From: Eledone cirrhosa
Lineage: Eukaryota
NCBI GenBank assembly: GCA_964016885.1
Contig: OZ024751.1
Location: forward strand, 23,994,001 to 24,058,000
Length of the DNA stretch: 64,000 nt
Direction of reading: 5' to 3'
Position numbers and translations under genes: made by a program
In this document: positions 2,811-61,140 of the stretch, piece after piece
Layout of the letters: each line of letters begins with the position of its first letter
Numbering within the stretch: position 1 is the first letter of the stretch
Notes under the pieces: generated by a model
The model's database searches: none
Told to the model about the DNA's origin: nothing
What the model saw: the letters and a program-made list of their open reading frames with translations, nothing else

Positions 2811-3264
2811 AATAAATTATCGAGAATCGGAATCTCGGCCCACGAAATAACGAAAACAATCTTCGAAAATTGTGGCAAAGTGCTCAATAGTTTGGGTAAA
2901 CCAGAGCTATAACTATCGTTTACATACCAACACACTGAGATAATGCTTAAAATCATTCGCACAGCCGAAAAAACGACCAAGAAAATTCGGGTCAGACAAA
3001 TAATAATATATATGAATGAAAAATCTTTACCCGTTATATATATAGAGAGAATGGAAAACGATAAATCAGTGATGCATCGGAACTCAATTTATTGTGTGTT
3101 ACAAGTGTTTCTCCGGCGAACCACTCGAGGTGTGATCCATGTGTGGATCTACCTGACTCTAGTCTCGCAGGTTCCGCGGACATTTTTTTATTGATTTCGG
3201 ATCATATCCACTTTCCATATATATATATATATATATATATATACAGTATATATATATATATAGT

Positions 3265-12232: not shown

Positions 12233-12604
12233 TATATTAATAAAAGGAAATCCAACTTTGTCTGATTTACTCGTTTTATTTACAATCCTTTAAAATTACA
12301 ATGATATTATAATGAAATAGTATGGTAGAATATTAAATGTTAAGTGTACAAGTACTTTCATGCTTTCGCAATCTTCAGGTTCAGATTCAGTGGTGACAGT
12401 CAAGTTTGCAATCGAAAATTGCAAACTTGACTGTCACCACTGAATATGAACCTGAAGATTGCGAAAGCATGAAAGTACTTGTACACTTAACATTTAACAT
12501 TTAATATTCTACCATACTATTTCATTATAATATCATTATAATTTTAAAGGATTGTAAATAAAACGAGAAAATCAGACAAAGTTGGAATTCCTTTTATTAA
12601 TATA
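12233..12604. mobile_element. Palindromic PLE-pLTR-like cassette between (TA)n tracts
   Basis: ~175-bp inverted arms around ~12413, with an HHR in each arm. Confidence 0.85.
12447..12485 (+). ncRNA. Minimal type I hammerhead ribozyme (mirror copy on minus strand at ~12346-12384)
   Basis: TGAAC-CTGAAGA-T-TGC GAAA GCA-T-GAAA-GTAC-TT-GTACA; palindromic GTAC caps stem III. Confidence 0.75.
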
Positions 12605-31240: not shown

Positions 31241-31562
31241 ATATTGTTATACTTGGGGAGGGTCATATGTGTGTAATATTGCCAGAATTAATAACAGAAC
31301 ACACTCACTGTTTGGTTGGTTTTCGCTTCTCGCTGTCTTTTATATCTGTAATCTAACTTACTCGGTCCTCAATGTTGAGGACCGAGTAAGTTAGATTACA
31401 GATATAAAAGACAGCGAGAAGCGAAAACCAACCAAACAGTGAGTGTGTTCTGTTATTAATTCTGGCAATATTACACACATATGACCCTCCCCAAGTATAA
31501 CAATATTTGTTTTGACACACGATTTCATATAAAAAACCTCGCTAAACTAATTCATCGCCGCT
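31241..31562. mobile_element. Near-perfect palindrome of the 46420-PLE terminal region
   Basis: ~130-bp arms around CCTCAA-TG-TTGAGG at ~31373; the right arm extends ~55 bp further; (TA)n on both sides. Confidence 0.9.
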
Positions 31563-38004: not shown

Positions 38005-38985
38005 GGATTAACAAATAATAGTTAAATGCAGTCCACTTAGGTGAAGTCCAGTTATGGTATTCCAGGTAGTGGATGATATTAACGCTTGGCTTGGTTTGAC
38101 TCAACAAGGCGTTTTCATAGTGATGCTGCGGGTATGCTGTAATTCCTATGTTGTAAACACTTGGAGTAATAATAAATCAGGAAAGAAGGTTTACATGGTT
38201 TGCTATACAAAAAAGTTTTTAATCACATAGCTTACATTTGTTTCACTGAACTGGTCTGTCTAGAGATCGCTATCCGCCTAATTTTGCGTCACTCGATCGC
38301 CAATACAGAATTATAACCAGTCAGATCTTCGGAGCATGCGAGAATGAAGAAAATACACAGGCAAGAAAAGAAAAGAAAATATGGAGTAGTTATGGCATTC
38401 AATTAGAACAATAACAACAACAATTATTACAACAATGCTATCAATAAACTATTTAAGGAGACCCTGACATTACTTAGGTGGGGGGTATATAATGTATCTA
38501 ATGTTACGGCGTGAAAATCAGCTGTCATAAGGCAAAAAGTATCGTAGTGTGTATCAATTTTAAATTATAATTTATAATTTATAATTTATAATTTATAATT
38601 TAAAATTGATACACACTACGATACTTTTTGCCTTATGACAGCTGATTTTCACGCCGTAACATTAGATACATTATATACCCCCCACCTAAGTAATGTCAGG
38701 GTCTCCTTAAATAGTTTATTGATAGCATTGTTGTAATAATTGTTGTTGTTATTGTTCTAAATGAATGCCATAACTACTCCATATTTTCTTTTCTTTTCTT
38801 GCCTGTGTATTTTCTTCATTCTCGCATGCTCCGAAGATCTGACTGGTTATAATTCTGTATTGGCGATTGAGTGACGCAAAATTAGGCGGATAGCGATCTC
38901 TAGACATACCAGTTCAGTGAAACAAATGTAAGCTATGTGATTAAAAACTTTTTTGTATAGCAAACCATGTAAACCTTCTTTCCTG

Positions 38986-38990
<5 letters not shown>
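38003..38990. mobile_element. ~800-bp near-perfect palindrome plus single-copy extension, with an HHR in each arm
   Basis: 38173-38570 is the reverse complement of 38590-38989; HHR 38828-38933 reads GCT-CCGAAGA-T-CTGACTGGT...ACCAGTTCAG-T-GAAA-CAAATG-TA-AGC. Confidence 0.9.
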
Positions 38991-43254: not shown

Positions 43255-43261
<7 letters not shown>

Positions 43262-43581
43262 ATTATGTAATAAACAACATAAGGCAATTATTCCATTTAC
43301 CAGTGGTTTCTTAAAAGCAAAAGGTTTTGCTTTCAATCCTCAGAATGAAAAATCCTGGTTTGTTTATTGAATATGGATTCTAAAGGTTTTTAGAATCCAT
43401 ATTCAATAAACAAACCAGGATTTTTCATTCTGAGGATTGAAAGGAAAACCTTTTGCTTTTAAGAAACCACTGGTAAATGGAATAATTGCCTTATGTTGTT
43501 TATTACATAATAATAATAATTAAGCTCTGTTGCTTACATAGAGCACTCTTTTTTCCTGGACTTTTCCGATGGAATTACTTC

Positions 43582-45069: not shown

Positions 45070-45071
<2 letters not shown>

Positions 45072-45757
45072 AAGGCGGGTAAAATTCACGAGATCCATGG
45101 ACGAGTTCTCTCCAGCGGTCTCTGTCCCTCATTATCGCTGCCATGTCCTGCGTCTCCAACAGACCAGTGTCTGTCCTTAGGGCATCAACATACGTTAACC
45201 TTGGTCTTCTTCCTCTTCTAGTGTGTCCATGTAGGGGCTCCCAAAGGAGCACTGAGTGCAATGTCAACTCTGGATGTCGGTGAACATGTCCAGCTAACCT
45301 CAGTCTCCTCTGTGTCACTTTTGAGCTGACTTTTGGGATGCTCCCATACAGCTCTGAGTTTTTCATCCTTAGTGTATACTGATTAATGTTCAGAGCCATC
45401 CTCAGCATTCTCGTGTAGCACCCATCCACCATCTGAGTGAGTTTCTTGGTCAGTGTGCAAGTCTTAGACCCATACAGCAGCACAGACTCCACTACAGCAA
45501 TAATTTTCAGGTCTCTACGAAGGTCCGACTTCCACACCGATCTCAAGCTGTGTCGATGGGTGTGGGGCTGAGAATGAATGAGACTAAAACAAAATATCTG
45601 GTAGAGAATGTTGAGAAGCCAGAAGGGATCACTAATGTAGACGGGAAGCCGCTAGAATTGGTTGAGGGCTTCCTGTATTTGGGAGCAAAGATTGGGAATA
45701 CGGAAGATGATGTGGTTGAGAGGAAGAGCAAGGCCTGGGTGGCGTGTCACAGCTTGA
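45070..45757 (-). pseudogene. RTE-clade LINE RT/C-terminal fragment, 5'-truncated with inversion
   Basis: + segment 45553-45757 (GLRMNETKTKY...VEGFLYLGA) is continuous in protein with - segment 45552-45070 (VESVLLYGS..T...RLRLAGH...GRRPR..Y). Confidence 0.9.
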
Positions 45758-47017: not shown

Positions 47018-48571
47018 TCATTTTTTTCTCTTTAACCTTGGCTTTCTAAGTTCTATTTCGCTGGCTTCTCTGATTTGCCTATCTGCTGGGTCATTTGTTT
47101 ATTTAGATATTATTCTAACTTCTATGTTGTCTATGTTACCGTTGTGTTGTTGTCTGGCATGTTCGTATATTTCTGAACCGTTTTTTTCGTCCTTTTAGTT
47201 CCCCCAGTGTTGGTCTATCCTTTCACTAATGCTACGAGCTGTCTCGCCTATGTATGTTGTTGTCATGTTTCTGCAAGTACCCTCTGTACATCTTATGCTA
47301 TAGACTACGTTTCTAGTTTTACAGTTTATCCGGGGGTTTACTCTACATATAATACATTTCCTATTAGTACAGTGGGTTTTCTTAAAAGGATAGGTTTTGC
47401 TGATCAGGGATTTTATGGTGGTTCCTGGCTTGTCTACCACCTTAATCTTTAAGTGGGTCTTTCTCAGAGCCTTTCTACACTGGTTAGCTAATTTCCCTCC
47501 AGGAGTAGCGTCCACAAACATGACACTTTGGTATCTCTCGCTGTCGTACCATGAGGTGGCTCTCCCTATCTTCCCTATCTTATGTCTAGTCCTATCTAAG
47601 CTATTCCATGATTTGCTCCTGTATAATGGGCAAATTCCTTTCATGTCCAGTTATATGAGGGTCTTATACTTCTCCGTGGCTCCTTCGTATACTCTGATTC
47701 TGTCTCTTTGGTTGTAGCCAGAGAACTGCATGCGGTTGATGAAGTGTTGGATGTGTCTTTCCATTTCTGTTGGGTCGAACATGCGGGACACGTTCTTCAT
47801 CACACGTACCAAGTCTGCGATCAGAATATTAAACTTAGCACTACTGGACATTGCTGAGTTTTTGAGTATCAGGTATTTGGAGGCCATGGGTTTAGCATAG
47901 TGTGAGTGGAGAATTTGGGCTCTCTCGTCTATAGCGTTAATCCAGAGTTCCGTGTCTAATACAGGTAGTCTATTGTTAGGGTGTTTGGAAGGGTAGTCGA
48001 TAGTTACAGTTATACTCTGGTGTATGGAATTAGCTATCTGCTGGATGCTTTCCATTGTGCTACGTTCTAAATCAAACTTGTTAGTGCTCTCTTGTGGAGA
48101 TGTCCTTATTATTATATTGATGTCGTCTACGTAACGAGAGTACATGATGAGGTCTGTGGAGCTCTCATCAAGGAGTTCTTTGAGTCTCCTTTCCCACCAT
48201 ACCATAAAAAGGTTGGCAACGTCACCAGCTATGGTGACGCCAATGGCTGCTCCCTCATTTTGGGTGTAGATCTTCTCGTTGAACTTGAATATGTGGCCCT
48301 TTAGGGTAATTTTGATACTAGCCCCTATTGCATGTGCGACCATTTTTCTTATCTGATCATTGTTTTGGGGGGTCTGTATAGCTTTGGTCCACCCAATCCG
48401 CCTTCCCATGGGAGTCTTTTTTGCCATTGAGGTTATGGTGGGGGGTCTACCTCTTATGGGTCTACTGGGGCAGAAACGTCTAAGGTCATGGCTGTCTAGG
48501 TATTCAATGTCTCAGGTAAGTCTAAGTAGGAGGCCCAGTTCGTCTGTGTCGACGTCGCAGAACTCTCAATG
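47018..48571 (-). pseudogene. PLE reverse transcriptase-GIY-YIG endonuclease ORF with in-frame stops
   Basis: IYTQNEGAAIG (B'), YSRYVDDI (C), LPVLD (E), thumb HYAKPM...FSGY, linker CTNRKCIIC, NVVYSIRC...YIGETARS..ERIDQH; continues past TAA stops to IYEHARQQH and RQIREA. Confidence 0.92.
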
Positions 48572-54822: not shown

Positions 54823-55222
54823 TGTAGAAGTTATATTTAATGTGTTGGGATTCCAACAAACTTAAAAGTTTATAACTGATATAGAGCACTCATCATTTTA
54901 CTGGAATAAATATTCAATATATTAATAAATGGAAACTATATTTATAAAACCATAATTATTTTATTATATATATTTCAAGGGCAACCAACCCAATCTTGGT
55001 GCGCTTTCATCAGATAAAATACAAAATTTGTTTTACAAATAGTCACATAACCATGGAAAACAACCTTGACGGGCGAATTTTCAACCGTCAAGGTTGTTTT
55101 CCATGGTTATGTCACTATTTATAAAACAAATTTTGTATTTTATATGATGAAAGCGCACCAAGATTGGCTTGTTTGCTCTTGAAATATATATAATAAAACA
55201 ATTGTGGTTTTATAAATATAGT
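54823..55222. mobile_element. Palindromic HHR cassette, same family as 60733-61140 in opposite orientation
   Basis: Arms 54918-55071 and 55086-55240; ATTTTAT-CTGATGA-AAGCGCACCA...GAAA-TATATA-TA-ATAAAAT on the minus arm. Confidence 0.85.
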
Positions 55223-55238
55223 TTCCATTTATTAATAT

Positions 55239-55327
<89 letters not shown>

Positions 55328-56599: not shown

Positions 56600-56942
56600 C
56601 TACTACAATCTTCTTACACCACCTTCTTCTTCTCACCTGTCTATTTTTCACTCCCACCCTAGTACCTTCAATATGCCCAATCTCAAATCTTTTCTCCGTC
56701 AGCTCCCTTCTACTCTCAAGCGCTTCCTAAGAGATGTCAAAATGAATGGACCTTTTATCTAAAGACATTTTTTCCAATTCCAACCCGCCCGTCCCCTCAA
56801 TCTATCTTATATCTCATTCTTTCTTTTGATGAAGGACTAGCGTCCGAAACGTTAAGACCCACTTTCTGCTATGTCAAGCGTTAACCTAATATATCCCTTC
56901 CATGTACTGTACCGATTGTGTTGTTATTTCTGTTTACCTTTT
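56600..56942 (+). mobile_element. PLE 3' end (decayed endonuclease tail plus HHR), copy 1
   Basis: EWTFYLKTFFP-like tail; TCTT-tTGATGA-A-GGAC tagc GTCC-GAAAC-GTT-AAGA at 56822-56857; similar to 59115-59344. Confidence 0.7.
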
Positions 56943-58204
56943 ACACACACACACACAAACACGCACACACACAAGCACACACACACACGAACACGTATAT
57001 ATATAAATATATATATATATATAAGACAATATGTCAGACTGAATGAATTTGCAACAACTCAGCTGTTACCCACTTCCTCAACTCAACTGATATACACAAC
57101 GTAATCCTGAATTTGGAATCTCGACTCTAACGCAAATTAAATTTTATACACTTTTTTATTCATATTTTTATACATATTCTTTACACTTATTTTTCTTTAT
57201 AAATCTTATACCTACTTTTATTAGCTTCAATCATTGGAATGCACCATGATGAAGCATCAATGAAGGTATTTATTTATCCATATCGATCTCAAATATTTAT
57301 CGATCTCTATGTTTTTACTATTTATCCCTTTCCATTTACTTCTCTTTTTCTCTCTTTTTATCGTAAATAAAAACCATTATTACACCTGCTTGAAAAATTT
57401 TTTAAGCCAAATATAGAAGGTATTGTTGGTGAAGATATGAAGGAATTCTTTATAACTATTGAAAGTGAGAGGAAAAGAGATATAGAGAAAGAATCAACAT
57501 TTTTTGTTTCTGTTCACCTCGAAAGAATGAAAGGCAAATTTGACTAGAGCAAGGAAGCTTTGAACTCAAAGCGCAGGAAACCAGAACGATTATAATAAAA
57601 TATTCTATTTTACTTTTTAACGACTCTACCACTTCACCATATATGGTGGCTGTAGGGTGGATCTCAGACATTTATTTAAATTCAACGTGATATTTTTTAC
57701 TACTCTTTTTATTTTGACTACGTGTTATTTTTTAAACATTTATTACGCTATTTATTTCCTTGCTATCATATCAGTCAGGTTCTGCCGATCGAATAGATGA
57801 ACCACTTATTTTCTCACTTTCATGACAAAGCTGATATAATATATTGCATTGCTGCATTTGACAGCACTATTTTGAACAGGGTTAAACACGGTTTATTTAT
57901 ATAATGTGAAATGGAATATTCCATTTAGATACTCTGGACAACAATAATTATTTAGCTAGGAAATAATTGCAGCTCACATGACATGTTATTCTGTTTCTTT
58001 CTAGCATGTCATTCATGTTTTCCCCCTTGCCCCCACTAAGATATCCACACGGATAGATTTCATTGTTGAGATAGTATAGTTTCAAATTAATTTCATTAGG
58101 GTACAGAGTTTCACTCCATTGGGTTCCAATTTCAAATCCCACAAGTATCAATGATATTATTGGAATCGATTCAGTCCTCTGCACACAAATAGAGGCTATT
58201 CGCT

Positions 58205-58413
58205 GGATTGGCAGTATCGGTAGAGCACCGGCCAACCTGTTTGTAGCATAGAGTTACGGCCCTTTACGTTCTGAGTTCAAATCCCACCGAGATTAACTTT
58301 GCCTTTTATTCTTACGGGGTTCGATAAATTGAACCATCAGTAATGCACTGGAGTCGATTAAATCGACTTTCCTCTCCCCCCAAATTGCTGGCCTTGTGCC
58401 TAAATAAAAACAA
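58205..58413 (+). mobile_element. Nin/Deu-type SINE
   Basis: Head, B-box, core and tail present. Confidence 0.8.
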
Positions 58414-58546
58414 TTAATTGTTTCATGAAAGGAGTTTCTATAGAACAATGCTTCCCAACCCTTTTACTTTCAAAGCCTCCTTCATTTCTTTAATGAATTA
58501 TCCCTCATACCTGCTGCTACAACTGCTACCCACACAGATTATTATG

Positions 58547-58715
58547 TAGAGGGTCTGGCACCATGCTTTGCAGCAAAGAGTCACGCCTCTTTATGGTCTG
58601 AGTTCAAATCCCGCCGAGGTTAACTTTGCCTTTCATCCTTACAGGTTCGATAAAATAAAGCACCAGTAATACACTGGGATAATTGCTGGCCTTGTACCAA
58701 AAGTAGAAACAATTA
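58547..58715 (+). mobile_element. Nin/Deu-type SINE, 5'-truncated
   Basis: B-box, core and tail present. Confidence 0.8.
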
Positions 58716-59038
58716 TTATACAGTGAGAGTATAATCGAGAGAACTGAATCTCCACACTAAATAGTTATGAGGGTCGCTACCAGTTAAGGTTTTCCACACA
58801 GTATATCACGTTGATTATGTTTGTTTTCGTGATGTATATGACTCCAGCATCTGCATTTGACTAATTGACAACTACTGTGCCTCCAGATGCACCAACAGTA
58901 TGTTCGGTAGGGATTGAACTCGTTTACGTCTATTTCGACAGCCGAAGACTGCAGACCATATGCATATATTTCCAATTTTACTGCTTGGATATAGATGTAA
59001 TACATGTACACAAACACACGCATATGTATGTATATATG

Positions 59039-59109
<71 letters not shown>

Positions 59110-59223
59110 ATATATCCAAGAGATTGTCAACATGATTGGACCTGTTATTTTTATCTAAAGACATGTTTTCCAATTCCACACCACCCGTCCACGTCCTTTT
59201 AATCTAACTTATTTCTCATTCTT

Positions 59224-59259
59224 TCCTCTGATGAAGGACTAGCGTCCGAAACGTTAGGA
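59224..59259 (+). ncRNA. Canonical minimal type I hammerhead ribozyme in PLE 3' end copy 2 (59115-59344)
   Basis: TCCT-CTGATGA-A-GGAC tagc GTCC-GAAAC-GTT-AGGA. Confidence 0.85.
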
Positions 59260-59340
59260 CCCTCTTCCTGCTATTTCAATCATTAACTTAATATATTCAT
59301 TCCATATACTGTACCGATTGTATTACTATTTCTGTTTACC

Positions 59341-59419
<79 letters not shown>

Positions 59420-59424
<5 letters not shown>

Positions 59425-59997
59425 AGGATGAATATAAAATGAAAGTGCTTTTGTTAAAAAAGGAATTTATTAGGTATTGACATATGTTTCTGTAACAGAC
59501 CGAATACCTATGTATCGCTGCTTGCGTAATCATATAATGTTAGCAAGTATTCGATAGCAAATGTATAATCAGTTGTCACTTCTTCAGAGATTTTGGGATT
59601 TGAACTCAGAACGTAAAGGGCCGTAACTCTATGCTACAAACAGGTTGGCCGGTGCTCTACCGATACTGCCAATCCAGCGAATAGCCTCTATTTGTGTGCA
59701 GAGGACTGAATCGATTCCAATAATCTCTGAAGAAGTGACAACTGATTATACATTTGCTATCGAATACTTGCTAACATTATATGATTACGCAAGCAGCGAT
59801 ACATAGGTACATTCGGTCTGTTACAGAAACATATGTCAATACCTAATAAATTCCTTTTTTAACAAAAGCACTTTCATTTTATATTCATCCTTTCTACATT
59901 TCTCCGGAATATAATTTATACTCGTTGAGCAAACCTGCACGTACGCTGTTCATCTCTAATGTAACGATATATTATCACTACATTATTGATAACCTGA

Positions 59998-60000
<3 letters not shown>
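59420..60000. mobile_element. Inverted-repeat HHR cassette with captured local spacer
   Basis: 59420-59592 is inverted with 59722-59896; CTGAAGA-A-GTGACA...TGTTAC-A-GAAA-CATATG-TC; spacer 59594-59724 equals the reverse complement of 58156-58286. Confidence 0.9.
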
Positions 60001-60029
<29 letters not shown>

Positions 60030-60676: not shown

Positions 60677-60731
<55 letters not shown>

Positions 60732-60732
60732 C

Positions 60733-61140
60733 TAAATGGAAACTATATTTATAAAACCATAATTATTTTATTATATATATTTCAAGGGCAACCAAGATGA
60801 ATTATGGTGCGCTTTCATCAAATAAAATACAGATTCGTTTTATAAATAAATATTGACATACCCGGAAAAAAGACAACCTCAACCAATGGTTGTCTTTTTT
60901 CCGGGTATGTCAATATTTATTTATAAAACAAATCTGTATTTTATCTGATGAAAGCGCACCATAATTTATCTTGGTTGCCCTTGAAATATATATAATAAAA
61001 TAATTATGGTTTTATAAATATAGTTTCCATTTATTAATATATTGTATAGTTACTCCACTTACTTCTTGAGTGCTTTATATCAGTTATAAAAATGTTTAAG
61101 CTTGTTGAATCCCAACAAATTAAATATAACCTCTGCACAT
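60733..61140. mobile_element. Palindromic HHR cassette
   Basis: Arms 60733-60878 and 60888-61033; HHR from 60938; single-copy extension to 61140. Confidence 0.85.

Follow-up and report, generated by a model that had tools for sequence, protein, structure and literature searches.

The palindrome at positions 59420-60005 of the window, the 64,000-nucleotide stretch of Eledone cirrhosa DNA analysed here, is a single young Penelope-like retrotransposon insertion, made up of two 5ʹ-truncated halves placed head-to-head and flanked by (TA)n runs. Between the halves lies a captured filler (59594-59724, minus strand), an exact 131-bp inverted copy of the DNA at 58156-58286. The source is to the left of the insertion, and its right end is 1133 nt away. 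The filler was probably made by microhomology-primed repair synthesis on the flank while two cDNA ends were being joined.

Anatomy of the insertion and source of the filler

Comparison of the window with itself found 131 of 131 positions identical between the filler and the reverse complement of 58156-58286, just as a sequence-only reading of this DNA had claimed, and the identity stops at both ends without extension on either side. The source, on the plus strand, comprises about 45 nt of unique flank (58156-58200) and 86 nt from the 5ʹ part of an older SINE copy (58201-58286); the non-SINE flank, earlier put at about 48 bp, is present at this shorter length, with SINE similarity starting at 58201. 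In a search of the 3.0-Gb genome that passes over very common words, the unique flank (58100-58215) had two matches, the source and its copy. The SINE part is at most 84% identical to other window SINE copies over at least 69 nt (89% to another window copy over one 46-nt piece), and its top identity among 103 matches of at least 70 nt in the fetched loci is 87.7%. Because the unique flank occurs at two places and the SINE part differs from the other copies examined, the source is exactly this locus, and the earlier attribution to one particular SINE copy holds.

Three other origins of the filler were rejected. It is not a spacer common to the family, whose other members lack it, and its flank is not a common repeat; the sequence-only reading had named both as grounds for abandoning its claim, and neither was found. 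Nor is it an ordinary SINE insertion or transduction, having neither the SINE 3ʹ half nor a target-site duplication, both of which are present in SINEs nested in the arms of two fetched loci (L033 and L156).

The short arm (59420-59596, minus strand) is the 3ʹ end of the element, from unit position 3115 to 2939, has no tail and is 100% identical to the family locus L031. The long arm (59722-59896, plus strand) is the same 3ʹ end (unit 2943-3115) and runs into a 109-nt tail (59897-60005, plus strand; unit 1-109) that differs from L031 by one substitution. A private 2-nt insertion at 59809-59810, present in none of 310 other fetched arm sites, makes the right arm different from the left. The identity of the short arm to L031 and the slight differences of the right arm and tail indicate that the insertion is very recent. 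Its left (TA)n target (59387-59419) is the microsatellite tail of an older repeat at 59118-59345, and its right (TA)n target, read from the sequence, is at 60006-60028. The structure had been described as a ribozyme palindrome ending at 59896; it does not stand alone, its arms being the two halves of a retrotransposon, and the insertion continues to 60005 through the element's own tail. A tail on one arm is typical of the family loci compared here.

Both junctions carry microhomology. On the left, TGG (59594-59596, plus strand) is common to the element (unit 2941-2939) and the source, a second microhomology that the earlier reading had not recorded. On the right, the AAT that it had recorded (59722-59724) matches exactly and lies within an imperfect stretch (59716-59727, plus strand) in which the element cDNA GAGATT-TTGGA and the source GATATTATTGGA agree at 10 of 12 positions, aligned by eye. 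Both arms were said to break 5 nt before CTGAAGA. This is correct for the right arm; the left arm's break is read as lying 9 nt before the box, because TGG fits both element and source.

Other repeats surround the insertion. At 59228-59260, the older repeat (59118-59345), whose (CA)n(TA)n tail was the target, carries a minimal hammerhead of canonical form in which helices I and II each have 4 bp; in a related copy at 56729-56942 the hammerhead core is replaced by TTTGATGA. Many further palindromes, several of them with hammerhead cores, are found, for example at 12238-12599, 31245-31502, 38175-38988, 43257-43516, 54915-55242 and 60730-61036. They probably derive from other Penelope-like families, and self-comparison of the window found no high-identity local copy as the spacer of any of them. 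By eye, a minus-strand frame at 47195-48511 resembles the remnant of another Penelope-like element, with YVDD and GIY-YIG-like motifs, and one at 45070-45651 (minus strand) resembles a non-LTR reverse transcriptase (RT) remnant.

The element family and its junctions

Searched against the genome, the right arm had 699 candidate matches, of which the 40 scored were the window's own copy and 39 others at 99% identity. The arm forms, in L031, the 3ʹ end of a tandem unit of 3115 bp, and tandem copies are spaced at 3115-3121 bp. The genome contains 584 exact junctions of the tail end with TATATA and none for the reversed control; the pattern itself requires TA, and 584 is a lower bound for insertions. 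Short-arm ends too run into (TA)n. L031 holds a 729-codon single frame with FDID, YRDD and IVY..YVG motifs and a stop inside its endonuclease part. As a query, this frame matched neither a Pfam nor an NCBIfam model nor any relevant PDB chain; it has 51 homologues of about 700 aa at 32-40% identity, one with PF00078 and one from Apostichopus japonicus, a host named for Hydra.

A single ORF with RT plus a GIY-YIG endonuclease at the C terminus, partial tandems, an inverted 5ʹ-truncated copy and a tail at one end are all present, as in EN+ Penelope-like elements, for which inverted truncated copies with a tail are standard. The Hydra clade is marked by RWK, DKT, a CxCX5C linker and the lack of CCHH (Craig et al. 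2021, PMC8557442). An alignment of eight proteins from the present group contains IRWK, ADKT and CNCVQPGMC, with CCHH absent, and insertion is into (TA)n. On these motifs, rather than on RT phylogeny, the element is provisionally placed in the Hydra clade. Beyond the motifs and (TA)n targets, it shares with the Hydra elements of PMC8557442 a unit of about 3 kb, the single ORF with its RT and C-terminal GIY-YIG, partial tandems, the inverted 5ʹ-truncated copy and the one-sided tail. Its 109-nt tail contrasts with the 30-40 nt of the general description in that source. Host-DNA fillers at the inverted junction, seen here, receive no mention in the available text of the same paper, and no description of local fillers at Penelope head-to-head junctions was found in the open-access literature.

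The junctions of the family were surveyed in a tail-anchored sample (the first 100 of the 584 places, 99 loci, with 8 first chosen as two-armed from the right-arm search) and in further palindromes found by gap patterns between CTGAAGA boxes; palindromes with wider inner gaps are covered through the tail-anchored sample only. A head-to-head junction is present in 59 of the 99 tail-anchored insertions, and in 11 of these 59 the two arms stop no more than 10 nt apart. All fetched loci apart from the window's own yielded 149 distinct head-to-head junction strings, a set with boundaries taken from BLAST and enriched for near-symmetric palindromes. Microhomology of at least 2 nt occurs in 77 and of 0-1 nt in 30, and extra nucleotides number 1-9 in 29, 10-49 in 11 and at least 50 in 2. 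In seven of the 11 mid-size cases the filler duplicates adjoining element sequence, and one (L178) is a missed short arm.

The two foreign fillers of at least 50 nt in this set are at L048 and L168. At L048 the short arm folds back on itself for 6 nt and is followed by a 57-nt exact local copy and then by the other arm; the arm ends are strongly asymmetric (unit 727 vs 2060). The source lies 584 nt beyond the tail end, in direct orientation. Since the filler sequence is a repeat with 34 other matches, the local copy not being among those listed and one on another contig being 100% identical over 58 nt, its local origin rests on proximity. The 199-nt filler of L168 (1577-1775) matches a dispersed, low-copy, GC-rich repeat at 94-96%, with no source found within 30 kb on either side and no Rfam match, which indicates that non-local templates, possibly RNA, are used too.

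Among all 35 family palindromes with 30-300 nt between the CTGAAGA boxes, a foreign filler of at least 50 nt was found in the window's only. The search for at most 29 nt between the two boxes gave 22 palindromes; fetching all 39 shorter and all 22 deeper palindromes added one further filler, the non-local one of L168. No junctional local copy was found at the single-arm 5ʹ junctions of the first 88 loci. A SINE at L156, 99.5% identical to a neighbour, was rejected as a local capture because it belongs to a young subfamily widespread in the fetched loci (at least 96% identity in 12 fetched 10-kb loci besides the query's own). Mapping spacers across the genome had been suggested earlier; applied to the fetched palindromes, it gives local sources for the window and L048 and a non-local one for L168. 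Local capture at the junctions of this family is thus real but rare: the tail-anchored sample contains one case among its 59 junctions, and the piece captured in the window has not been propagated. The means of duplicating host sequence that the sequence-only reading proposed does exist, although its yield is small. L110:4326-5220, in the flank beside another family insertion, contains a direct duplication of 286 bp (99%) together with an inverted copy that is exact over 155 bp; this is probably another palindromic repeat.

Where the arms break appears to be set by the 5ʹ end of the RNA. Of the 50 ends that the tail-anchored sample has between unit 2850 and 3100, 9 cluster at 2930-2936, which is at CCAGTT, 31 nt below TATAAATA, in the region of unit 2901-2936 (L031:7499-7534). 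After A2932, 26 junction strings, some loci being counted more than once, continue with a non-genomic C in 11, a genomic G in 7 and A or T in 8; the palindromes of L081, L141, L150 and L152 have the extra non-genomic C. This nucleotide suggests a copied cap, and a transcription start near unit 2932 is likely. A pLTR with a TATA box and an initiator is described in PMC3846280. The common break of the arms near CTGAAGA is probably cDNA run-off at the likely transcription start and not the work of a ribozyme; cleavage was rejected as its cause because it would remove CUGAAGA from the cDNA. The window's two microhomologies are located 7 and 11 nt inward of this presumed end of the RNA.

Other arm ends recur as well. 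A second cluster at unit 2997 (L031:7595; 5 of 50) takes in both arms of L185 and L212, and SINEs in L033, L053 and L156 have their 3ʹ insertion point there too. In L035, L058, L068, L159 and L161, among others, the two arms stop at an identical or almost identical unit position far from the start, as if one RNA molecule had been copied by both cDNAs.

Formation of the filler

Penelope-like protein cuts and extends both target strands, is a predicted dimer and has two RT starts that bound the tail (PMC11167929). The simplest model from these properties is one cDNA per target strand, with the two then joined. Both (TA)n target strands would prime reverse transcription at two fixed starts, unit 3115 and tail position 109, and both cDNAs would run to the RNA 5ʹ end near unit 2932. 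The short-arm cDNA would then lose about 7 nt, fold back and pair TGG/CCA with its own strand 1.1 kb upstream, left single-stranded by resection. Copying of about 128 nt by a DNA polymerase, Pol theta-like or the element's RT, would give a new end agreeing with that of the other cDNA at 10 of 12 positions, and the two would then be joined and filled in. Observed directly are the head-to-head 3ʹ ends in (TA)n with a tail on one arm, and a filler that is local, single-copy and bounded by microhomology. A different proposal, self-priming in place of two primed starts, is made in PMC3846280; the fixed ends 3115 and 109 on opposite arms seem to fit two primed starts better.

Templated insertions made by Pol theta (PMC7165422) offer a close comparison. 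They too are microhomology-primed, fall into inverted cis and direct trans classes, use a short first and a longer second microhomology and enter within 15 nt of the 3ʹ end; the window's microhomologies, at 7 and 11 nt, lie inside the 15-nt scan of that study. The copies of adjacent element in 7 of 11 mid-size fillers resemble the iterative Pol theta pattern that it describes. If the short arm was extended in both L048 and the window, the only two local cases, one is inverted in cis and one direct in trans, and in each the template is the strand with its 3ʹ end towards the break. Microhomology on either side and a template in flanking DNA agree with Pol theta products, whereas size and distance do not: tracts are typically 3-30 bp from within about 30 bp (PMC7165422), as against 131 bp from 1133 nt away. 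Length and distance so far beyond the usual range mean that another polymerase may be responsible, and the filler is classed as templated-insertion-like and not as a demonstrated Pol theta product.

Local templating is known from the junctions of other retroelements. In L1 and R2 (PMC11702581, PMC11371274), the cDNA or the opposite DNA end is extended on nearby DNA before joining; L1 insertions with near-site templated sequence are rare (3 in the L1 study, PMC11702581), and R2 cDNA can snap back onto nearby rDNA (PMC11371274). Those cases come from cultured cells, whereas the present filler lies between two cDNAs within a head-to-head element in a natural genome. In retrohoming of a linear group II intron, extra residues match neighbouring DNA and Pol theta is required (PMC3280974). 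Penelope elements of Adineta also contain host sequence between element repeats; their pLTR has TATA and initiator, and their inverted junction has palindromes (Arkhipova et al. 2013, PMC3846280). The Adineta captures, in contrast, are of kilobase size, sit between pLTRs that are direct or solo and are interpreted as RNA-mediated, and the available text describes no local source, whereas the source here is 1.1 kb away.

The identity of the copying enzyme admits one more reading. It is possible, though unlikely, that the element's own RT and not a host enzyme walks onto resected flank DNA or other RNAs, even kilobases away, and so bridges the two cDNAs. Were this true, Penelope-like insertions would continually give rise to short local duplications, which could be carried on by transcripts reading through the palindromes, and the at least 584 near-identical insertions would form a natural data set on how inverted Penelope structures arise. 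A complex insertion (L186:1794-2195, the same place as L205:5392-5793) contains an antisense copy of the element's 3ʹ end in which 45 of 49 substitutions in the aligned part are A>G; it looks like ADAR-hyperedited RNA copied back into the genome, and L205 suggests re-insertion of palindrome read-through RNAs.

The sequence-only reading had a nascent cDNA switching to a local template, either DNA or a nascent host transcript. The local copy at the inversion junction supports a local template, and the transcript is the less favoured one. For RNA to have been copied, the RT would have jumped from the RNA 5ʹ end onto a nascent plus-strand transcript across 58156-58286 and copied 131 nt. Non-LTR RTs do jump templates (PMC3280974, PMC11371274), the L168 filler has no local source, and the A>G-rich copy of L186/L205 suggests that other RNAs enter insertions. 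The jumps described in those papers, however, go to template 3ʹ ends, whereas entry here is inside the SINE through microhomology of 3 nt. A transcript of the SINE itself is excluded, since the copy extends about 45 nt beyond the 5ʹ end of the SINE; none of the 131 filler positions is edited, and no host gene was recognised by eye in the window's ORF list, in which small exons would be missed. The junction features point more to DNA-templated, microhomology-primed repair synthesis, and the transcript reading is improbable.

The arm that was extended cannot be read from the window alone. In a reversal of the order given above, the tail-arm cDNA would have invaded the left-flank duplex near 58153-58161, entered at the 10/12 homology, copied towards the break in D-loop, MMBIR-like synthesis and joined through TGG. 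The longer homology at the right junction would suit duplex invasion, and BIR/SDSA-type synthesis suits long tracts at kb distance. At L048, however, the short arm was the one extended, since its self fold-back precedes the local copy, and the second microhomology is typically the longer one (PMC7165422), which fits a short arm extended first. Extension of the tail arm is likewise improbable.

It is very improbable that the filler was added later, when a near-perfect 180-bp palindrome formed a cruciform that was cut at its centre and given a templated patch. Central rearrangement of palindromes is known, and 22 family palindromes have at most 29 nt between the boxes. Fillers nevertheless occur at very asymmetric junctions such as L048, where no tight cruciform is expected, and microhomology and small fillers are general at family junctions.

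An assembly or sequencing artefact is very unlikely, given that the ends are those usual in the family and that the arms differ by a private insertion. Five read runs, none recorded as RNA, match part of the stretch (at best 10 of the 15 words sampled). A contig of 1270-1271 nt, present in three runs from a single sample (X1-X3), covers 59613-59724 and then passes into other sequence; it is taken to be the source locus, and no listed contig of the four runs compared crosses either junction. Such contigs drop rare or low-coverage branches into repeats, however, and a young insertion may be absent from another individual. Exact family ends and target, microhomology at both junctions and equivalent fillers at other loci also speak against an artefact.

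The hammerhead-like motif and the meaning of the capture

Each arm carries a hammerhead-like motif. In the long arm (59727-59837, plus strand) it consists of CUGAAGA, a long helix II, GAAA (59826-59829), a palindromic C-AUAU-G and a GUC site; the short arm (59479-59587, minus strand) has the same motif, and helix I is 1 bp long in both arms. The CUGANGA core, GAAA, UH site and helix II of a minimal type I hammerhead are all found, together with the unpaired A and palindromic helix III, and helix II pairs with probabilities of 0.95-0.98. Helix I falls short of that type: of 252 arm copies, counted without deduplication, 248 have a helix I of 1 bp; the identical script gave 4, 8 and 8 bp for three other hammerheads in the window. 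The minimal hammerheads of Penelope-like elements (Cervera and de la Pena 2014, PMC4209133) share CUGANGA, the unpaired base after A9, G10.1-C11.1, a large helix II, GAAA, palindromic helix III and the UH site. Their helix I has 4-5 bp, or 2 bp in D. virilis, as against 1 bp here (3 with a bulge), and the present motif differs further in an extra A before GAAA and in a helix II that encloses about 75 nt. Canonical hammerheads are 'readily detected' in Hydra elements (PMC8557442), whereas helix I is missing here.

At gathering score, Rfam had no match in the window, and its weak matches in the family pLTR included no ribozyme. Arm ends fall at 3057-3058 in 3 of 139 cases among ends between 2880 and 3115, and so leave no clear cleavage footprint; both arms of L068 end at 3057/3058, the predicted GUC site. 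Because helix I is 1 bp, self-cleavage of the motif is doubtful as judged from sequence, and any activity might need protein help or occur in trans. Of the two outward-facing ribozymes described earlier, the core, helix II and palindromic helix III are thus present, but an adequate helix I and any Rfam support are missing.

The filler replaces the element's TATA and initiator-like start site, so that this copy is likely silent unless read through. For the same reason the product is most likely an inert scar, a by-product rather than a working device. Inverted-repeat formation and the completion of integration are described as open for Penelope-like elements (PMC8557442, PMC11167929), and the family's junctions provide testable signatures of both: fixed RT starts 109 nt apart, run-off at the likely transcription start, arms ending within 10 nt of each other (11/59), microhomology joins and occasional copying of flank DNA over distances of up to about 1 kb. 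The capture as such probably has no function; what it offers is a trace of the joining step and a minor path to local duplication.
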